A program made the translations under genes and the position numbers. The notes below the pieces were generated by a model, which was given only the letters and a program-made list of their open reading frames with translations, was not told where the DNA came from and ran no database searches. From Minisyncoccota bacterium (GTDB lineage: Bacteria > Patescibacteriota > Minisyncoccia > Phycocordibacterales > CAIJYI01), in contig JALNYN010000002.1 of assembly GCA_023229825.1 (NCBI GenBank), positions 17,789 through 81,788 of the forward strand: a stretch of DNA of 64,000 bases. The letters run 5' to 3'. Below, piece after piece: positions 31,259-58,589 of this stretch (the stretch's first letter is position 1; the number at the start of each line of letters is the position of its first letter).

Positions 31259-31735
31259 ATGTTTCAAAAAATAAAAAAAGTAATGCGGTCGAAGGTGTTT
31301 CTCCTTTCATTTTCTCTTATATTGAGCGCATCAATGATAGCCGGAGCGTTCGTGTATAAAACAAGGATCGTAAACGCGACCATCGGTTCGAATGGCATGC
31401 TTATTTTTGGAGGAAGAATACAAATGATGCAACTTTGCTGTAATGGCTTGAGACTTCAAATTGGTCCTCCTGTCGAAGCGGATGTTATATTTACTTGGCC
31501 TATTTCACAGCTCTATATGTGGTGGAATCTCACGATGGGACAATGCGTGCTCGGTGACGCATACCCGTTCGGCGTATGCGTCAGTCCGTTTTCGTGGCCT
31601 CCTTGTACGCGATCTGAAACAGTTGACGGAACCATACGACAGGTGGGGACGACGCTGACCGGTCCGCTCTCCGGCACCTGCCAACGAAGCGGCGGTTTGG
31701 TTGAAGGCGGAGGGTATAGTGGCACCAGTTTTTAA
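31259..31735 (+). CDS. Small secreted Cys-rich hypothetical protein
   Basis: 158 aa; signal peptide; 9 Cys. Confidence 0.4.
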   Translation: MFQKIKKVMRSKVFLLSFSLILSASMIAGAFVYKTRIVNATIGSNGMLIFGGRIQMMQLCCNGLRLQIGPPVEADVIFTWPISQLYMWWNLTMGQCVLGDAYPFGVCVSPFSWPPCTRSETVDGTIRQVGTTLTGPLSGTCQRSGGLVEGGGYSGTSF

Positions 31736-32607
31736 TCAGAAAGCTTTTTCCAGTCCGATAAAGAAAGATCTTCCGCTCTCACTGTTTCACTAATTCCGCT
31801 CTCTTTCATTTTGTTTCGTAAAATATTTTCATCGAAAACAGCTCTCAGGTTTGAAAAGAGCTGTTTTCTTTTGTGCGCAAAGCCCGCATGAAGTATTTCA
31901 AAAAATCGTTCTTCTTGTGATAGGGTCGTTTCTTGCCGGACGCGGGTCTCCGACCCCGTCCGGAACGTTTCGGACGGGGTCGGAGACCCGCGTCCGGCGT
32001 CGAAAAATTTTCTTGAAATGTTATCTATCAGAAGGATCGCCGAATCAACCGAAGGTGCAGGCGTAAAACTTCCCGCTTTGACCGTTTTTATATATTTCGG
32101 CTCGCCGTATGCTTTAACGCTGAGGGAAAGCAAACTTTCCTTACCATCTCGCGCGACGATGCGCTCGGCGACCTCCTTTTGAACAAGCAGAACCATTTTT
32201 GAAGGTTGTTTTTCTGATGTGAGGAATTTTCGAATGATCTGCCCGGTAATGTAATACGGAATATTGGCAACCAATTTATATTGTCCGTCGTTGTTTTTAC
32301 CGCCGGACTGGGGTTGCACCCCTGTCCGCAATGTTTGGAAATTAAGGACATCATCATGTATTAAAGTAAGGCGTTTTTCAAAAATTTCTTTGGCGAATTT
32401 TTCTTGCAGGAGCGGTATCAGGTCACCATCTTTCTCGACAGCAATAACTCTCACATTCCTTTTTAAGAGTTCTTCTGTGAGTATTCCCCTCCCCGGTCCG
32501 ATCTCAAGCACGGTTTCTCCAGCAACAAGAGAAGCGGCATCGACGATTGACGCGACAATGCCAGTATTAGTTAAAAAATTCTGTCCAAGAGATTTTTTAG
32601 GTATCAT
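31732..32607 (-). CDS. ksgA: 16S rRNA (adenine1518-N6/adenine1519-N6)-dimethyltransferase KsgA/RsmA, carrying two in-frame palindromic-element insertions
   Basis: SLGQNFL, VLEIGPGRGILTEEL, VANIPYYIT motifs. Inserted segments are TLRTGVQPQSGGKNNDG (DNA 32301-32338, a REP family-A copy) and DAGRGSPTPSETFRTGSETRVRQE (DNA 31936-31998, a 63-bp near-perfect palindrome). Confidence 0.85.
   Translation of the reverse strand: MIPKKSLGQNFLTNTGIVASIVDAASLVAGETVLEIGPGRGILTEELLKRNVRVIAVEKDGDLIPLLQEKFAKEIFEKRLTLIHDDVLNFQTLRTGVQPQSGGKNNDGQYKLVANIPYYITGQIIRKFLTSEKQPSKMVLLVQKEVAERIVARDGKESLLSLSVKAYGEPKYIKTVKAGSFTPAPSVDSAILLIDNISRKFFDAGRGSPTPSETFRTGSETRVRQETTLSQEERFFEILHAGFAHKRKQLFSNLRAVFDENILRNKMKESGISETVRAEDLSLSDWKKLSD
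31936..31998. repeat. 63-bp near-perfect palindrome inside ksgA (gccggacgcgggtctccgaccccgtccggaacg / cgtttcggacggggtcggagacccgcgtccggc)
   Basis: 31-bp arms with one mismatch; translated in-frame within KsgA. Confidence 0.9.
32301..32338. repeat. REP-like palindromic element (family A) inserted in-frame in ksgA
   Basis: cgccggactggggttgcacccctgtccgcaatgtttgg versus the RAYT-flanking cgccggttcggggttgtaccccgaaccgaaacgttgg. Confidence 0.85.
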
Positions 32608-32636
32608 AAAATTTTTGCTTATTATTTTTTAACACC

Positions 32637-32675
32637 GTCGCCGGTTCGGGGTTGTACCCCGAACCGAAACGTTGG
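32637..32675 (+). repeat. REP element (family A), left flank of the RAYT gene
   Basis: gtcgccggttcggggttgtaccccgaaccgaaacgttgg; 10-bp stem cggttcgggg/ccccgaaccg. Confidence 0.9.
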
Positions 32676-32691
32676 AATCTTTCGCATGTCA

Positions 32692-33195
32692 TCATTCATT
32701 CACATTATCTGTTTTCAACTCGCATTTTTCGTTTGCCGACGACCAATACCAAAAGGATGAATCCGAAACATAGTTTTTTCGAACAGGATTTTCTAAAATA
32801 TAATTCAATTTTTGCTGAAAAAATTTTTCGCTTTGAAGAATGATAGGCATATTGGTATCTTGCCAAATGGAATAGGTTTCGTCGGTTTCAACGAATAATT
32901 TTTCAATATTCGGTTCAGTTGCAACTATATTTTTATGTATTTCGCGGGATGTATGCCTTTTAAAATCCCTGACAAATCCGGAGGTATCGCAAGATTCTGT
33001 AATAAGATGAATATGGTTAAGCATAAATACAAAACCGTATAGTTTGAGACCCTTCTTCTTTTGGCAAAAACGGAGAGATTCTGCAATAATATTCCAGCGA
33101 TTATGCCGGTCAAAAAGGTAATACCATTTCTTAATGGTAAAAGTGAGAAAGTATGTGGAAGAATTTAATTCTTTTGATATTTTTTTGATCGGCAT
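32692..33195 (-). CDS. IS200/IS605-family HUH tyrosine transposase, REP-associated (RAYT-like)
   Basis: 167 aa; HUH motif FVFMLNHIHLIT; C-terminal IWQDTNMPIILQSEKFFQQKLNYILENPVRKNYV carries the catalytic Tyr and NP. Flanked by identical REP palindromes in inverted orientation (32637-32675 and 33231-33270). Confidence 0.85.
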   Translation of the reverse strand: MPIKKISKELNSSTYFLTFTIKKWYYLFDRHNRWNIIAESLRFCQKKKGLKLYGFVFMLNHIHLITESCDTSGFVRDFKRHTSREIHKNIVATEPNIEKLFVETDETYSIWQDTNMPIILQSEKFFQQKLNYILENPVRKNYVSDSSFWYWSSANEKCELKTDNVNE

Positions 33196-33230
33196 TAATG
33201 ATTACTATAAAGAAATTTTTAATCAAATAC

Positions 33231-33270
33231 AAACGTTTCGGTTCGGGGTACAACCCCGAACCGGCGAAAG
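33231..33270 (-). repeat. REP element (family A), right flank of the RAYT gene, inverted relative to the left copy
   Basis: Reverse complement reads ctttcgccggttcggggttgtaccccgaaccgaaacgttt, identical core to 32637-32675. Confidence 0.9.
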
Positions 33271-33334
33271 AGGATCTTGCGGCAATTTTAAATTTTACAT
33301 TGTCGTTTTTAGTTTTTCATTTTTCCTTTTTACT

Positions 33335-36300
33335 TTAAATATACACCACCCTTCCTCTCGTTTCACCTTTCCTTTCCTCTATTTCCACCAGCTCCTCCGG
33401 TATATCATTCAAAAATTCCGATGGTACTGTCATGTTTCTTGAGCCAAAAACGGTTCGTACTGAGGCGTAGGTTAAAAACAGTCTTTGTTTTGCTCGCGTG
33501 ATGGCGACATAAAAAAGCCGCCTCTCTTCTTCTTTGTGGTTCTGTGAATCGCCAGATTCTCCGAAACTTCGATGCGGGAAAAGTCCGTCTTCGAGTCCGG
33601 TAATGAAAACCGTTTCAAATTCCAATCCTTTTGACGCGTGCACGGTCATGAGACGGACGCGCGGTGTATCGATCTTTCCGTGCATGAGCGAATCTTGATC
33701 GCTTGCCAGAGCGGCATCTTCGAGGAGTTTCTGTATTCCCTCTTCCGGCGGATAGGCATCGTATTTTGAAGCCAGAGAAACTAATTCGTAGAGGTTCTCT
33801 ATCCTTTCTTGCTCCTCTTCTCCTCCGAGCGATAACCCCTTTTCCATCCCCGTTTCTTTGAGAATATATTTTACCGTATCGCTCGGTTTTTTTTCGGCGG
33901 CGATAACCCGTATTTTTTCAAGAAGCGCGAAAAAGTCAGAAACTTTTGTTTTTGCCGCCGCTGGGAGCATATCTCTTTGTCCGGCAAGGATCTTTTTCAG
34001 GGTGACTTCCCCGAGGCCTCTTGCTGGAACGTTTATGATGCGTTTCAGATCGAAAGCGCTTTCGGGATTGAATGCGGCGCGAAGATACGCAAGAACATCT
34101 TTCACCTCTTTTCTCTCAAAGAATTTTGTCCCGAGTACCTGATACGGAATGTCGGCGGACAGCATTGCCTCTTCGAGAGCGCGAGATTGATAATTGGCGC
34201 GAAAGAGCACGGCTATATTTTGGTAAGAAACTCCTTTTCTCACAAGTTCTCGCACTTTTTCGGCCACGAAAGAAGCCTCGTCATTTTCGTCGTACGCTTC
34301 ATAAAGCGATATTTGTTCTCCTCCCGGAATTTTGGTAAAGAGATTTTTTGGCACCCTCAGCTTATTTTTTTGAATGACGCTATTTGCCGCCGAAAGGATA
34401 TTCTGTGTGGAGCGGTAATTTTCTTCAAGAAGAACGATCTTCGATCCGGGGTAATCTTTTTCAAAATGAATAATGTTTCTAATGTTAGCGCCTCGCCACG
34501 AATACACGCAATTATGTACCGGTATGGAGTTAACAATATAGTTATGAGTTTTGGCAATATCAAGGTCATAGACCAATCCTTCATATTTTACCCGCTCTAT
34601 CTTTTGAATTTCATCAGTAATTATTTTTCCATTTTGAATGAGCGCAGTTTCCATTTTTTCCCGAAGGCTTGCCGCCGGAAAAAAATTAAATCTCCCTTTT
34701 TCCGTAAGGAGTGCGGTACGATTCAGGATAAGTTTGGGATTGATCGCAAGTATTTTTTGCGCGATATTTTCAGCTTCGCCATAATCCAACTTTGCGATTT
34801 CCAACCGCCAGTCGTCCCTTTTTCCTTTTCTTGTTTTAAAACCCGCCAATTCGAGTTTCTCTTTCAGTTTTTTGTCGGTTGTGTTGATGGAAACGCGGCT
34901 TAACCCGAATGGGTGCAAAACGCTTTTTCTTTTGTCACTGAACATGGTGAGTCGGACGTTGAGTCGATTGTTTTCCGTGTTCCCTTGCGTTGTTCCTTGC
35001 GGGGTGTAGTGTGGAAAATCAAATGAAAGTCCTGTTTCTTCAAAAAGTCGTTTCGCGTTTTTTTCCGTATCTATCATTCCAAATAAATCGTCAATCTGCT
35101 TTTGAGCAAGGGAGAGTTTTCTGCCGATCGTATGGAACACTATCGTTGGAATTCCGTAGAAAAAAGAATAATAGTTTTCCCATAAAATCGCCTCCGGTTT
35201 TGTTTCGCATACTCTTATTACCCACATCCGATCCGCTTTTTCTTGATTGCTTCGCACCAAAAAACCGACCTTTACATCCCCGTTCCCGTTTCCCGGGACT
35301 CGTGCGCTTTTTACCATGCCAACCCGAAATCCTTTCGTTCTTTTGTACATGAGATACACATAATATACGTTGTGTTGAAGTGAAAAACGGGAAAAGAAAA
35401 TATGCTCGGGCGTCGTTTTTATTATTCTCCCGCTTTTTGTTGTGATTTTTATCATATCCCCGTCATATTTTTTCTCTATGACTCGCGTAACTTTTGAGAG
35501 GCAAACATCTCCGTTTCCGGCGGCGCTTTTTACTTCGTCGCCCGTCTTGATATCTTCTATTTTTTTCTCGCCATTTTTGACGGATACTCGCGTATTTTTC
35601 GGAAAACACTGGTCCCCATCGCCGACGACGCAGATGTTTCGGTCTTTTCCGGCGAGCAGTCTTGAAAGTTCGTATTGAACGGTATTCGTGTCTTGATATT
35701 CATCAATGTGCACATAGCGCCACATTTCTTGGTATTTTTCACGGATAGCCTCGTTTTCGCGCAGGAGAAGCAGAGTTTTTAGGAGAAGATCATCAAAATC
35801 GAAAGCCGATGCTTTTTTTGTTCTTTTTTCGTAATCAAGCCACACTTCGGCGACGATGCGCGGGAAAAAAGCGGTGTTGGAATTCGCGTAAAAGGTCTCT
35901 GCTGAAACACACTCTCCTTTTTGCCGCGAAATAATACTTTGTATCTTTTTCGGATCGAATTGCTTCGGATCGAGATTCCTTGCTTTTATGGCATCTTTGA
36001 TAAGCGAACGAGAATCGTTTTGATCTAAGATCGTAAAGTGCTTCGGAAGGCCGAGCGCTTCGTTCTCTTTTCGAAGGATATATACTCCAAGCGAATGAAA
36101 GGTCCCGATAAACGGTTCGTTGCCGTATCCGATGATATTTTCTTTTTGAAGGAGCGTGTTTATCCTTCCCCTCATCTCTTGCGCAGCTTTATTGGTGAAT
36201 GTTACGGCGAGTATTTGATGCGCGGGAACACCGCTTTGTATGAGCTGAATGATCCTGTGCGTCAAAGTTTTTGTTTTTCCGGCCCCCGCTCCGGCAACGA

Positions 36301-36373
36301 TCAAAAGAGGGCCGTTTTTGTGAAGAACGGCCTCTTTTTGCGGTTCATTTAATCCTTCTGTGTAGTCATGCAT
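33335..36373 (-). CDS. ATP-dependent DNA helicase UvrD/PcrA family, interrupted by an in-frame intein
   Basis: Motif I AGAGAGKTKTL, motif II DEYQDT, motif III region VVGDGDQ|CFPKN...(366 aa)...IPVHN|CVYSWRGANI, motif IV/V and a C-terminal UvrD_C region. Total 1012 aa versus the typical ~650-750. Confidence 0.9.
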   Translation of the reverse strand: MHDYTEGLNEPQKEAVLHKNGPLLIVAGAGAGKTKTLTHRIIQLIQSGVPAHQILAVTFTNKAAQEMRGRINTLLQKENIIGYGNEPFIGTFHSLGVYILRKENEALGLPKHFTILDQNDSRSLIKDAIKARNLDPKQFDPKKIQSIISRQKGECVSAETFYANSNTAFFPRIVAEVWLDYEKRTKKASAFDFDDLLLKTLLLLRENEAIREKYQEMWRYVHIDEYQDTNTVQYELSRLLAGKDRNICVVGDGDQCFPKNTRVSVKNGEKKIEDIKTGDEVKSAAGNGDVCLSKVTRVIEKKYDGDMIKITTKSGRIIKTTPEHIFFSRFSLQHNVYYVYLMYKRTKGFRVGMVKSARVPGNGNGDVKVGFLVRSNQEKADRMWVIRVCETKPEAILWENYYSFFYGIPTIVFHTIGRKLSLAQKQIDDLFGMIDTEKNAKRLFEETGLSFDFPHYTPQGTTQGNTENNRLNVRLTMFSDKRKSVLHPFGLSRVSINTTDKKLKEKLELAGFKTRKGKRDDWRLEIAKLDYGEAENIAQKILAINPKLILNRTALLTEKGRFNFFPAASLREKMETALIQNGKIITDEIQKIERVKYEGLVYDLDIAKTHNYIVNSIPVHNCVYSWRGANIRNIIHFEKDYPGSKIVLLEENYRSTQNILSAANSVIQKNKLRVPKNLFTKIPGGEQISLYEAYDENDEASFVAEKVRELVRKGVSYQNIAVLFRANYQSRALEEAMLSADIPYQVLGTKFFERKEVKDVLAYLRAAFNPESAFDLKRIINVPARGLGEVTLKKILAGQRDMLPAAAKTKVSDFFALLEKIRVIAAEKKPSDTVKYILKETGMEKGLSLGGEEEQERIENLYELVSLASKYDAYPPEEGIQKLLEDAALASDQDSLMHGKIDTPRVRLMTVHASKGLEFETVFITGLEDGLFPHRSFGESGDSQNHKEEERRLFYVAITRAKQRLFLTYASVRTVFGSRNMTVPSEFLNDIPEELVEIEERKGETRGRVVYI
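34511..35608 (-). mobile_element. Intein (366 aa) inserted in helicase motif III of the UvrD/PcrA gene
   Basis: N-terminal Cys (codon 35606-35608), block B TPEH, C-terminal VHN followed by +1 Cys (codon 34508-34510). Interior long enough for an endonuclease domain (KLELAGFKTRKGKRDD is LAGLIDADG-like but degenerate). Confidence 0.8.
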
Positions 36374-42913: not shown

Positions 42914-42948
42914 ACGTCATTCCGGCCCGCGAGCCGGAATCCACGTCG
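42914..42948. repeat. Family-C-related hairpin element (acgtcattccggcccgcgagccggaatccacgtcg) between convergent genes
   Basis: Same cgtcattccgg...ccggaatccacg frame as 58128-58161 and the second hairpin of 23167-23248. Confidence 0.75.
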
Positions 42949-56197: not shown

Positions 56198-56277
56198 CTT
56201 CGTTTTGTTTTTTAAAAATTATGTCGGGGCAGTACTACTGTACAGCCCCGACATAATTTTTAAAAAACAAAACGAAT
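56198..56277. repeat. 33-bp perfect inverted repeat (ttcgttttgttttttaaaaattatgtcggggc ... gccccgacataatttttaaaaaacaaaacgaa) with a 14-nt loop
   Basis: Located in a ~520-bp non-coding stretch with the tandem DnaA boxes. Confidence 0.85.
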
Positions 56278-56768: not shown

Positions 56769-58589
56769 TTATTTCACTCCGTGTTTTTTTCGTATTTCCT
56801 TCAATTCTTCTTCTTCCACCTCGGCTTTCTTCTCTTTCCCTTCTTCCCCTAGTTTTTTAAGCTCTTCTTCCGGGAGTTTAATGAGTTCCAGCGTGCGTTT
56901 TTCAAGATATTCTTCGGTATTTACCTTCGGATCTTCTAAAACCTCCTCGAGTAAGGCGTGAAGGATCAAGCCGAGTTTTGGTCCGGGTGTTTCATGTGTA
57001 ACCTCCATTATCCTCGTTCCGTCAATTTTAAGCATCCCCACAGACACCGGCGAGCGCATCGCCTCCTCGATCATAGCCTCATATTTACGCAAACGATAGG
57101 GTTTTTCAACCGGTCGTCCCATTCCCGTACGGTCGCAGGCGCGAATCTTCATAAGATCCCACACATTTTCAGCGCCGACATTAGCCACGATCCTTCTGAC
57201 TGCTGAAAGCGTTATTTTCTCGATATCTGAGAAAAACATGTGATATTTCACGAGAGCCGAAACCGTCTGGGTTAGTTTCACGGGAAACTTTAATCGTTCC
57301 ATTATCTTCTTTGAAACTCTGCCTCCGACAACGTCATGCCCATAAAACGTCCATTTATCCTTCTCTTGTGACCATCTGCGCGTCTCAGGTTTGGAAATGT
57401 CGTGCAATAAAGCCGCAAGCCGAATGTGGAGCGGCCATCCGTGTTTCACCGCAGTATCAAGTGCGCGCAGATTGTGCTCCCAGATCGTATAAATATGCAT
57501 GCCTTTCTGCTCAAGACCGATCCCTTTTTCCAGTTCCGGAACGATAAATCGAAGCAAATTAAGCTCATGAGCCAAGATAATACCGCTCATGGCGTTATCC
57601 GACATAAGTATTTTTATGAATTCATCACGAATTCTTTCACATGAAACACTTTTCAAACTATCCGAAAGCCGAATAATGGCCTCTTTTGTCTCCTTTTCGA
57701 TCATAAAACCAAGCTGTGCCGAGAAACGAACCGCGCGCAAAAGGCGGAGGGCATCCTCACCAAAACGTTCCTTCGGCTTCCCTACTGTTCTGATTATTTT
57801 GCTATCAATGTCATTTTGTCCTTTATAAAGGTCAACGAGCGTTCCGTCGAACGGATTATAAGCCAAAGCGTTTATGGTAAAATCTCGCCGTTTCAGGTCA
57901 TCCTCAAGTTTTTTACTAAAGATCACATGATCCGGGTGCCGGCTGTCGCTATAGTCAGATTCAGTGCGGTAAGGCGTAACCTCCACGATGACGGTTTCGT
58001 CTGAAACATAGTTGCCTGTTTCATGTGCAACATTAAGTTCCTCTTTTTCCACTTGTACTGAGTTATGCCGAAGGGTTTCATCCTCCTCCGCTGAAGCTAT
58101 GGAGGACATGTGTGTAACTTCCCCACCCGTCATTCCGGACAGGGATCCGGAATCCACGTCGTTTGTTGCCTTCCTTGAGCCATGCCGAAGGGTTTCATAT
58201 GTAACGTTATTTTCCTCTTTTCCTTCAGTTTCACGTGACACTATTTGATTGATCGCTCGCGTGGCTCGCTGGGGCGTAGGGGCCAGTCTGAGGACTGGCG
58301 TATGAAGGTCCGAGGTTTCGACACTTTCCCCTGTTTCATGTGTAACATCATCTTCTGTTTTTATCACTACGCCAACGGTTCCGTAGTCATTTTCATAAAA
58401 TGTCTTCTCAAATAACCCGATTATTTCTTCCGGTACGGCATTCGTGGTAACATCCCAATCTTTAGGGATTCTTCCCAAAATCAGATCTCGCACGCACCCT
58501 CCAACCAAATACGCCTCAAAACCGGCACCCCGCAAGGTCTCGGTTACACGTGTAACATATGACGGAATTTTCGATTTTAAGTCGTTCAT
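56769..58589 (-). CDS. cca: CCA-adding enzyme/poly(A) polymerase-family tRNA nucleotidyltransferase with HD domain, carrying a ~115-aa in-frame insertion built from repeat elements
   Basis: N-terminal LVGGCVRDLILGRIPKDWDVTT (NTase glycine motif); after the insert RRDFTINALAYN and HD-domain LAALLHDISKPETR. Insert translated from 58010-58350 contains repeat-derived peptides PTPQRATRAINQIV (family-B element 58247-58282), DVDSGSLSGMTGG (family-C hairpin 58128-58161) and repeated VTHETG/ETLRH units. Confidence 0.85.
   Translation of the reverse strand: MNDLKSKIPSYVTRVTETLRGAGFEAYLVGGCVRDLILGRIPKDWDVTTNAVPEEIIGLFEKTFYENDYGTVGVVIKTEDDVTHETGESVETSDLHTPVLRLAPTPQRATRAINQIVSRETEGKEENNVTYETLRHGSRKATNDVDSGSLSGMTGGEVTHMSSIASAEEDETLRHNSVQVEKEELNVAHETGNYVSDETVIVEVTPYRTESDYSDSRHPDHVIFSKKLEDDLKRRDFTINALAYNPFDGTLVDLYKGQNDIDSKIIRTVGKPKERFGEDALRLLRAVRFSAQLGFMIEKETKEAIIRLSDSLKSVSCERIRDEFIKILMSDNAMSGIILAHELNLLRFIVPELEKGIGLEQKGMHIYTIWEHNLRALDTAVKHGWPLHIRLAALLHDISKPETRRWSQEKDKWTFYGHDVVGGRVSKKIMERLKFPVKLTQTVSALVKYHMFFSDIEKITLSAVRRIVANVGAENVWDLMKIRACDRTGMGRPVEKPYRLRKYEAMIEEAMRSPVSVGMLKIDGTRIMEVTHETPGPKLGLILHALLEEVLEDPKVNTEEYLEKRTLELIKLPEEELKKLGEEGKEKKAEVEEEELKEIRKKHGVK
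58010..58350. repeat. Composite repeat insertion inside cca: short GTTACACATGAAAC-type units, a ~112-bp internal tandem duplication (gccgaagggtttcat... at 58066 and 58178), one family-C hairpin and one family-B element
   Basis: Seen directly; stays in-frame across the whole insertion. Confidence 0.8.

Follow-up and report, generated by a model that had tools for sequence, protein, structure and literature searches.

A transposase gene bracketed by REP palindromes and in-frame palindromic inserts in the neighboring ksgA gene: a probable REPtron in Candidatus Paceibacterota

How do palindromic DNA units come to lie in frame within ksgA, a housekeeping gene, and what is the part of the small transposase gene encoded next to it? 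The question is raised by 64,000 nucleotides of an ultra-small groundwater bacterium of the Minisyncoccota (assembly GCA_023229825.1, contig JALNYN010000002.1, positions 17,789 to 81,788 of the forward strand). This whole 64-kb stretch is called the window in the following, and all positions refer to it. A first-pass annotation, made from the sequence alone, had described the genome as similar to those of the Candidate Phyla Radiation (CPR), and the sources indeed give Candidatus Paceibacterota. Three genes follow one another on the minus strand, uvrD/pcrA (33335-36373), the transposase gene (32692-33195), and ksgA (31732-32607). The locus is probably a REPtron, i.e., a REP-associated tyrosine transposase (RAYT) gene bracketed by its cognate repetitive extragenic palindromes (REPs) in the spacer between uvrD and ksgA, with REPs copied elsewhere, including into two sites of ksgA. 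The features concerned, with the evidence for each in brackets, are as follows.

33227..33267, minus strand: REP-B, 5' of the RAYT start, hairpin core at 33239-33263 (inverted-repeat pair, fold, family consensus).
32692..33195, minus strand: RAYT of the HUH/Y1 type, 167 aa (NF047646, PF01797, conserved residues, structure model).
32638..32678, plus strand: REP-A, 3' of the RAYT stop and 30 nt 5' of the ksgA start codon, hairpin core at 32642-32666 (inverted-repeat pair, fold).
31732..32607, minus strand: ksgA/rsmA, 291 aa, frame intact, with two REP-derived in-frame inserts (TIGR00755, 24-ortholog alignment, AlphaFold model).
32299..32337, plus strand: REP-C, a single 39-nt REP unit (ACCGCCGGACTGGGGTTGCACCCCTGTCCGCAATGTTTG), antisense to ksgA, hairpin at 32304-32328 (codon-level comparison with ortholog L001, family consensus).
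31927..31998, no strand assigned: 72-nt in-frame block with a 64-nt zero-spacer REP doublet at 31935-31998 (palindrome, fold, comparison with L001, L002, and L187).

The 167-aa protein is a RAYT. It matches the Pfam family PF01797 (Y1_Tnp) and reaches 84.1 bits with the NCBIfam equivalog model for RAYTs, NF047646, which exceeds the cutoff of 80 by a small margin. Both signature motifs are present, LNHIHLIT (HUH, H61-I62-H63) and LNYILENP (catalytic Tyr132, N136-P137). An alignment with 26 homologs shows no variation at H61, Y132, N136, and P137, and conservation of at least 90% at H63. Y132 and N136 align with Y115 and N119 of TnpAREP from E. coli, and the HUH motif corresponds as well. The AlphaFold (AF2) model of the protein has a mean predicted local distance difference test score (pLDDT) of 89.8. 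Its top match in the PDB is 4ER8, TnpAREP with a REP hairpin (E = 4.4e-7, TM 0.66/0.67, root-mean-square deviation 2.5 A), and the IS200/IS605 transposases ISDra2 and IS608 rank below it. The first-pass annotation had proposed an IS200/RAYT-type HUH transposase at these coordinates, and it is the RAYT side of this proposal that is borne out. Indeed, the NCBIfam IS200 model NF033573 yields 18.5 bits against a cutoff of 55. The gene is present once in the window and once per related genome among the loci retrieved. An autonomous IS200 element was rejected on the IS200 score and this apparent single-copy architecture. Elements of the IS200/IS605 type (IS608, ISDra2) are nevertheless comparable in the HUH/Y1 fold and, by analogy, in a hairpin-recognizing single-strand-DNA chemistry which would leave no target-site duplication. 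They differ from the gene in the window, which is apparently single-copy and has identical inverted REPs at its flanks, where those elements have a left and a right end of different kind; here, it is the hairpins that would move, not the gene.

The flanking REPs form an inverted bracket around the RAYT gene. REP-B carries the head TTTCGCCGG facing outward and the tail AAACGTTTG facing the RAYT, and REP-A likewise has its head CGTCGCCGG outside and its tail AAACGTTGG inside; the non-palindromic heads (TCGCCGG) of both point away from the gene. The bracket had been described before as two identical palindromes of about 36 bp. The inverted arrangement and 36 contiguous identical bases stand, while the coordinates shift by a few bases, and the arms measure 41 nt with 95% complementarity. 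Each hairpin consists of an 11-bp stem and a 3-nt TGT loop, with folding energies of -15.1 kcal/mol for REP-A and -14.0 kcal/mol for REP-B (z = -4.5). At most 2 of 200 shuffled sequences fold as well. A role as intrinsic terminators was considered for the REPs and rejected, as not one of them scored terminator-like. Homologs of the RAYT with 69-86% identity were found on seven other contigs, and REP-like hairpins flank each one. On the five contigs where both flanks are covered (L091, L074, L034, L056, and L186, the window copy), the hairpins are inverted and heads-out. A TTC/GAA variant of the REP recurs beside most of the RAYT homologs on related contigs, and the gene neighborhoods of the RAYT vary among the related genomes.

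Palindromes unique to this locus, an outcome which the first-pass annotation had named as contrary to its proposal, were not what was found. The repeat is a real dispersed family with an organization in inverted doublets (REPINs) in related genomes. Its consensus, of about 40 nt, reads Y-R-T-C-G-CCGG-NNC-GGGGTTGYACCCC-GNN-CCG-R-A-A-Y-R-T-T-T-G, or in short form YRTCGCCGG-N3-GGGGTTGYACCCC-N3-CCGRAAYRTTTG, plus stem variants. The pattern used to search genomes left the central 3 bp free in both stem arms. Strict matches numbered about 30 in JBAYGK01, 12 in JAPLYL01, and 7 in CALREZ01, all related Paceibacterota genomes. A metagenome scan added at least 113 REP loci, nearly all from one groundwater sample; the unique units amount to at least 146 under strict and at least 181 under looser criteria. 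The free stem block served for the analysis of covariation in 51 unique units from the window and three related genomes. Watson-Crick pairing was observed at 134 of 153 positions, with 11 different triplets; with shuffled partners, the average was 69.6 and the highest value 92. Compensated variants of the GGGG/CCCC stem core exist too. This strong covariation shows that compensatory changes maintain the stem and points to selection on the hairpin. Among the matches listed, 80 of 181 units stand in heads-out doublets with a start-to-start distance of 87-93 nt, giving a REPIN of about 120 nt. A search of IMG/VR viral contigs gave no match to the REP pattern, and a phage vector for the REPs is therefore unsupported.

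Within ksgA, the same kind of unit is read as protein. The product is a KsgA by the equivalog model TIGR00755 (206 bits vs. a cutoff of 171) and by its GPGxG (S-adenosylmethionine-binding) and NIPYY motifs, which are kept. Insert 1 comprises 13 codons (peptide QTLRTGVQPQSGG, residues 91-103), placed after N89-F90 in the loop that connects the DDVL strand to the catalytic motif NIPYY. Insert 2 comprises 24 codons (A204-T227, peptide AGRGSPTPSETFRTGSETRVRQET) in the linker joining the N- and C-terminal domains. The ortholog L001/P0010 is empty at both sites, and compared with it the window is longer by exactly 39 nt at site 1 and by 72-75 nt at site 2. Hence, the alignment of orthologs, as the first-pass annotation had suggested, confirmed two lineage-specific segments in an intact frame; the codon-level comparison moved their boundaries slightly, the KNNDGQ that follows insert 1 being native loop. 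The other contrary outcome named at first, sister genomes with the same segments as conserved protein but no palindromic DNA, likewise does not hold, given the orthologs with empty sites. At the DNA level, both inserts fit the family consensus position by position, also in the head and tail outside the palindrome. REP-C, previously placed at 32301-32338 and taken for another copy of the flanking palindrome, is a variant of the family with 72% identity over the 25-nt core and partly compensated stem changes. Stem, loop, and tail all set it apart from the flanking REPs. On reading the insert junctions against the empty-site ortholog, no direct repeat flanking REP-C was found, as expected for HUH/Y1 chemistry. 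The long palindrome of insert 2 is present and in frame as first described, with a length of 64 nt (31935-31998), not 63. It pairs at 31 of 32 positions (-45.9 kcal/mol, z = -10.4) and consists of two heads-out REP arms around a common central AACGTT tail without spacer; each arm alone is a REP-type hairpin with the family tail.

Structure prediction, a further check that had been proposed, places both inserts outside the ordered core. The AF2 model of KsgA (pLDDT 82.4, predicted TM score 0.80) has a pLDDT <50 solely at residues 1-7, 96-107, 206-218, and 220-225, so that the inserts are its only internal low-confidence segments. The core superposes on solved KsgA structures with TM 0.73-0.88. 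All residues invariant among 25 aligned KsgA sequences are retained in the insert-bearing protein. In pairwise comparisons of five orthologs, with or without inserts, the ratio of nonsynonymous to synonymous substitutions (dN/dS) in ksgA is about 0.04-0.17, the same range as for insert-free orthologs. Most probably, the two inserts are translated and form disordered loops, with KsgA otherwise functional. The gene contains a further hairpin of 12 bp at codons 247-258 (about 31834-31868; GAAAACAGCTCTT...AGAGCTGTTTTC), which is conserved in L002 and L004. It lies in the sequence coding for KRKQLF..LRAVF and is probably a by-product of the protein sequence.

The two sites are recurrently occupied in other orthologs. 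Site 1 is enlarged in 17 and site 2 in 27 of the 83 KsgA homologs with recognizable anchors. Site 1 is filled by complete REPINs in L003 and L188, as doublets with a spacing of 68 nt, while site 2 holds a 64-nt doublet in L002 and a singlet in L187. Insert-bearing alleles persist over lineages separated by a synonymous divergence (dS) >1. The site-2 inserts of the window, L002, and L187 may have a common origin. They share the reading frame and a bulged stem, the length of 64 nt is common to the window and L002, and the junction CCGGCAAGA to the window and L187. Against a common origin, identity is limited to 48 of 64 bases, the sequences flanking on the left do not agree, and one ortholog just as close has an empty site. 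The doublet in L002 is probably related to that of the window, and its two arms differ from each other. Unrelated palindromes occupy the same two sites in L004 and others. One of them belongs to a family also found in the window as an intergenic palindrome between convergent genes at 42915-42945 (CGTCATTCCGGCCCGCGAGCCGGAATCCA); in L004/P0012, it is in frame at site 2, where it yields the peptide RHTGPRAGIH. Recurrent insert peptides in KsgA are RFNLD...EVKPR (P0017, P0022, P0031, P0044, and P0049), IPAKAGIQ...DSRLRGND (P0008, P0012, and P0013), and the AT-rich FQFSIFNFQ/FLISNF (P0004/5, P0009, and P0023). These sequences point to further repeat families colonizing the same two loops. P0002, a 999-nt Logan contig with a KsgA 82% identical, is identical to the window protein in its N-terminal half, insert 1 included, and to P0010 in its C-terminal half, where site 2 is empty. 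It may be a recombinant allele or a chimeric assembly; because of the latter, it was dropped as an empty-site allele and used only as independent support for insert 1.

In-frame REPs are not restricted to ksgA. Among the matches listed, 24 of 146 REP units are flanked on each side by at least 50 open codons, and about 12 of the 146 (roughly 8%) are in frame within host genes confirmed by Pfam; most units in the relatives are intergenic. In the window, three of the five units lie within ksgA and are not extragenic in location, an exception of a kind documented for other REPs (PMC3733652). For instance, two populations have an in-frame REP in the large subunit of ExoVII, located between the HRDC domain and the OB domain, in one of them with the identical peptide RTGVQPQSG, and SufBD carries an in-frame REP or REPIN in two populations. 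Other Pfam-confirmed hosts of in-frame copies are TruB, ArgRS (in its DALR domain), a PMT_2 glycosyltransferase, a PrmC-like methyltransferase, and a giant surface protein, in which the units are in tandem. The intragenic survivors are restricted to stop-free insertions of 3n nucleotides within poorly ordered loops.

The proposed mechanism follows from known relatives of the enzyme. By analogy with TnpAREP of E. coli and TnpA of IS200/IS605, the RAYT would bind the folded REP on single-stranded DNA, cleave beside it, and rejoin the strand elsewhere without target-site duplication, the cutting and rejoining being modeled on the biochemistry of TnpAREP (PMC3479197). REPs of one family would spread as singlets and as REPINs. 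A copy landing in a gene would be expected to survive only if it lengthens the frame by a multiple of three, its GC-rich palindrome is free of stops, and a surface loop tolerates it. In ksgA, the survivors would be the 13-codon singlet before NIPYY and the 24-codon zero-spacer doublet in the interdomain linker. We infer that RAYT catalysis mobilized the REPs, and that KsgA would be translated with both inserts and retain its activity.

Several observations weigh against this picture. The REPs lack the 5' GTAG guide required by TnpAREP of E. coli, so the recognition rules of the RAYT must differ. The window contains five REP units, all within 1.4 kb of the RAYT, and no further copies of the family were found elsewhere in its 64 kb. 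In the ksgA mRNA, the 64-nt palindrome would pair into a GC-rich stem of roughly 29 bp, which might impair expression. In CPR bacteria, rsmA is among the less conserved ribosome-biogenesis factors (PMC12641178), and selection on this copy may hence be relaxed. As dS is saturated, the dN/dS values speak of the gene family and tell little about the time since the insertions.

The clustering beside the RAYT fits either cis-preferential action of the enzyme or local recombination. The second possibility is the starting point of the most probable alternative, in which the RAYT is domesticated and no longer mobilizes REPs, and the units in ksgA have another source, for example the adjacent REPs through gene conversion or recombination, or else slippage or hairpin-templated repair. 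RAYTs were described as domesticated, single-copy, and vertically inherited genes (Bertels et al. 2017, PMC5581495), and the arms of the 64-nt doublet are mutually identical where those in L002 differ, which suggests arm-to-arm homogenization. Nevertheless, this explanation is unlikely. The differences of REP-C from the flanking REPs show that it is no simple copy of its neighbors, REPs and REPINs of related genomes are spread over many contigs with a defined doublet spacing, and the RAYT-flanking REPs track the RAYT between genomes despite the different neighborhoods.

Dispersal by the RAYT remains the preferred reading, but the inserts could owe their persistence to something other than permissive loops. 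Accordingly, a second alternative regards ksgA as decaying or non-functional, with inserts tolerated since KsgA is dispensable in the lineage. Besides the lower conservation of rsmA and the long stem within the coding region, the assorted inserts at the same sites in about 20-30% of Paceibacterota orthologs are in line with it. It is very improbable in view of the intact frame of 291 codons, the invariant residues all being kept, SAM-binding and NIPYY motifs included, the low dN/dS, the high-confidence and KsgA-like core of the model, and the insert-bearing alleles which last across lineages. Finally, it is scarcely credible that the extra segments are loop sequence of ancestral or convergent origin, or an artefact of assembly: the loop at site 1 is long in B. 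subtilis KsgA too, and loop length varies among KsgA generally, but the segments match the REP consensus throughout, close orthologs have empty sites, and an artefact is unlikely because an independently assembled ENA contig shows 100% identity over 31692-34195 and P0002 encodes insert 1 identically.

Among described systems, the REP/BIME-TnpAREP pair of E. coli (RAYT group 2; 4ER8) is comparable in its small HUH/Y1 protein with HUH motif, catalytic Tyr, and Asn four residues on, in the inverted REP hairpins flanking the gene, in the inverted REP doublets, and as the best structural match (TM 0.66). In contrast, the sequence similarity between TnpAREP and the RAYT of the window is marginal (phmmer E = 0.24), and the metal ligand H123 is replaced by K140. 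The stem of the E. coli REP is imperfect, whereas the family of the window has a perfect stem of 11 bp with a 3-nt loop, a YRTCG-CCGG head without 5' GTAG, and a conserved 3' tail RAAYRTTTG. Membership in the GTAG-type REPs of E. coli and Pseudomonas was therefore rejected, the head consensus before CCGG being YRTCG. The REPIN-RAYT systems of Pseudomonas (Bertels and Rainey 2011; RAYT group 3) are similar in having two inverted REPs at fixed spacing in a REPIN of about 120 nt, an apparently single cognate RAYT, and REP variants which form a population. Here, the host is an ultra-small CPR bacterium instead, the RAYT neighborhoods vary among related genomes, the copy number is apparently modest, with about 30 strict matches in the best-sampled related metagenome-assembled genome (MAG), and roughly 8% of the units among the matches listed are in frame within genes.

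In-frame intragenic REPs as such are already established. Di Nocera et al. (2013, PMC3733652) catalogued them in Opitutus, Thauera, Thioalkalivibrio, and Rickettsia, often in genes for DNA repair and RNA modification, and bacteria bearing REP/RAYT are among the hosts. The GTAG and CGTC REPs of Opitutus terrae, Thauera, Thioalkalivibrio, and further bacteria (PMC3733652) resemble the present case as in-frame singlets or dimers encoding about 13-30 residues in housekeeping genes, with double insertions in one gene and DNA-repair and RNA-modification genes as hosts; the REP family and the host phylum differ. The families CGTC-1 to CGTC-4 have a CGTC tag, an 8-9 bp stem starting from A/T pairs, a 4-5 nt loop, a CCA tail, and no transposase (PMC3733652). 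The family of the window, often with CGTC in its head, is in contrast linked to a RAYT. Membership in CGTC-1 to CGTC-4 was rejected, since the tag matches in part (YRTC; CGTC in REP-A) but the family has an 11-bp stem CGG-NNN-GGGGT, a loop of 3 nt, RAAYRTTTG as its tail, and an associated RAYT. A likeness to the Rickettsia palindromic elements (RPEs) concerns the outcome only, in-frame palindromes in protein genes, and is an analogy, not membership. In 2000, Ogata and co-workers reportedly found RPEs inserted without frame disruption into essential protein genes, in a genome that is reduced, where they are said to be tolerated in surface regions. RPE-1 is longer, with about 100-150 nt, and RPEs are not known to have a cognate RAYT.

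The novelty claimed at first has to be narrowed to the host. No papers linking RAYTs or REPINs to CPR, Patescibacteria, or Parcubacteria were found in the literature searched, and REP/RAYT in CPR is apparently new to the literature. The observations extend REPIN-RAYT systems to the Candidate Phyla Radiation, and in-frame REP insertion is more general there than the single ksgA locus implied, the kind of phenomenon itself being known from REPs and RPEs elsewhere. CPR genomes are tiny and gene-dense with little intergenic room, which may explain why a noticeable share of copies would be translated inside essential genes. Moreover, in one groundwater metagenome, close populations differ in whether sites of the same genes are filled or empty. 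Such populations are natural material for studying element movement, possible precise excision, and which protein loops tolerate 13-34 extra residues. For annotation, odd segments of CPR proteins rich in Gly, Pro, Arg, and Thr should be read with caution as they can be repeat-derived.

The REP core was also observed outside CPR, in MAGs of Methylococcaceae (L019 and L040), in Roseospira (L016, L023, L052, and L072), and in Hyphomicrobiales (L049 and L054). In Methylococcaceae, it also carries the tail AAACGTTT, and the Methylococcales unit reads CCGG-NNN-GGGGTTGYACCCC-NNN-CCG-AAACGTTT. RAYT homologs outside CPR have 54-56% identity in Methylobacter luteus, Methylumidiphilus, and Thiodictyon, and about 58% in Brocadiaceae. 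REP-RAYT systems are usually described as strictly vertically inherited. Judging from these sequences, the cognate pair would be either deeply conserved or horizontally transferred. A wider and rather tentative idea, which we consider possible but do not favor, is that in Paceibacterota mobile palindromes, this REPIN family and at least three unrelated families, are a systematic source of loop inserts in housekeeping enzymes. Loops such as the two in KsgA would then be landing pads filled, and possibly precisely emptied, many times independently. The same idea holds that the REP-RAYT pair is shared almost unchanged with Methylococcales (RAYTs about 56% identical), which would imply transfer between phyla.

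The spacer between uvrD and ksgA (32608-33334 in the window) is a variable slot among L001-L004 and L187. It holds the RAYT in the window and merely 39 nt in L001. The spacer genes of the relatives were considered as hidden RAYTs and rejected: those of L002 and L187 encode a four-helix bundle of the 23S_rRNA_IVP family, and the unassigned genes in L003 (282 aa) and L004 (177 aa) have no matches. The spacer in L004 also contains a REP pair, with about 100 nt between the units, which is possibly the remnant of a lost RAYT. On the other side of the slot, the UvrD/PcrA helicase (33335-36373, minus strand, 1012 aa) bears an intein (Intein_splicing and Hint domains), which is also present in the L003 and L187 orthologs and absent from those of L002 and L004 (644-653 aa).

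Elsewhere in the window, an AT-rich, near-perfect intergenic palindrome of 78 nt lies at 56199-56276 (36 pairs, core GTCGGGGC...GCCCCGAC) and is unrelated to the REP family. The gene for the CCA-adding enzyme (56769-58589, minus strand, 606 aa) has an insert of about 100-125 aa which splits the PolyA_pol head domain. This insert is composed of short repeats, GTTACACATGAAAC-like units (VTHET, VSRET, VTYET, and VAHET) and a ATTCCGGA...TCCGGAAT palindrome (DSGSLSGMT). It is the second housekeeping gene of the window that carries palindrome-derived inserts in frame.

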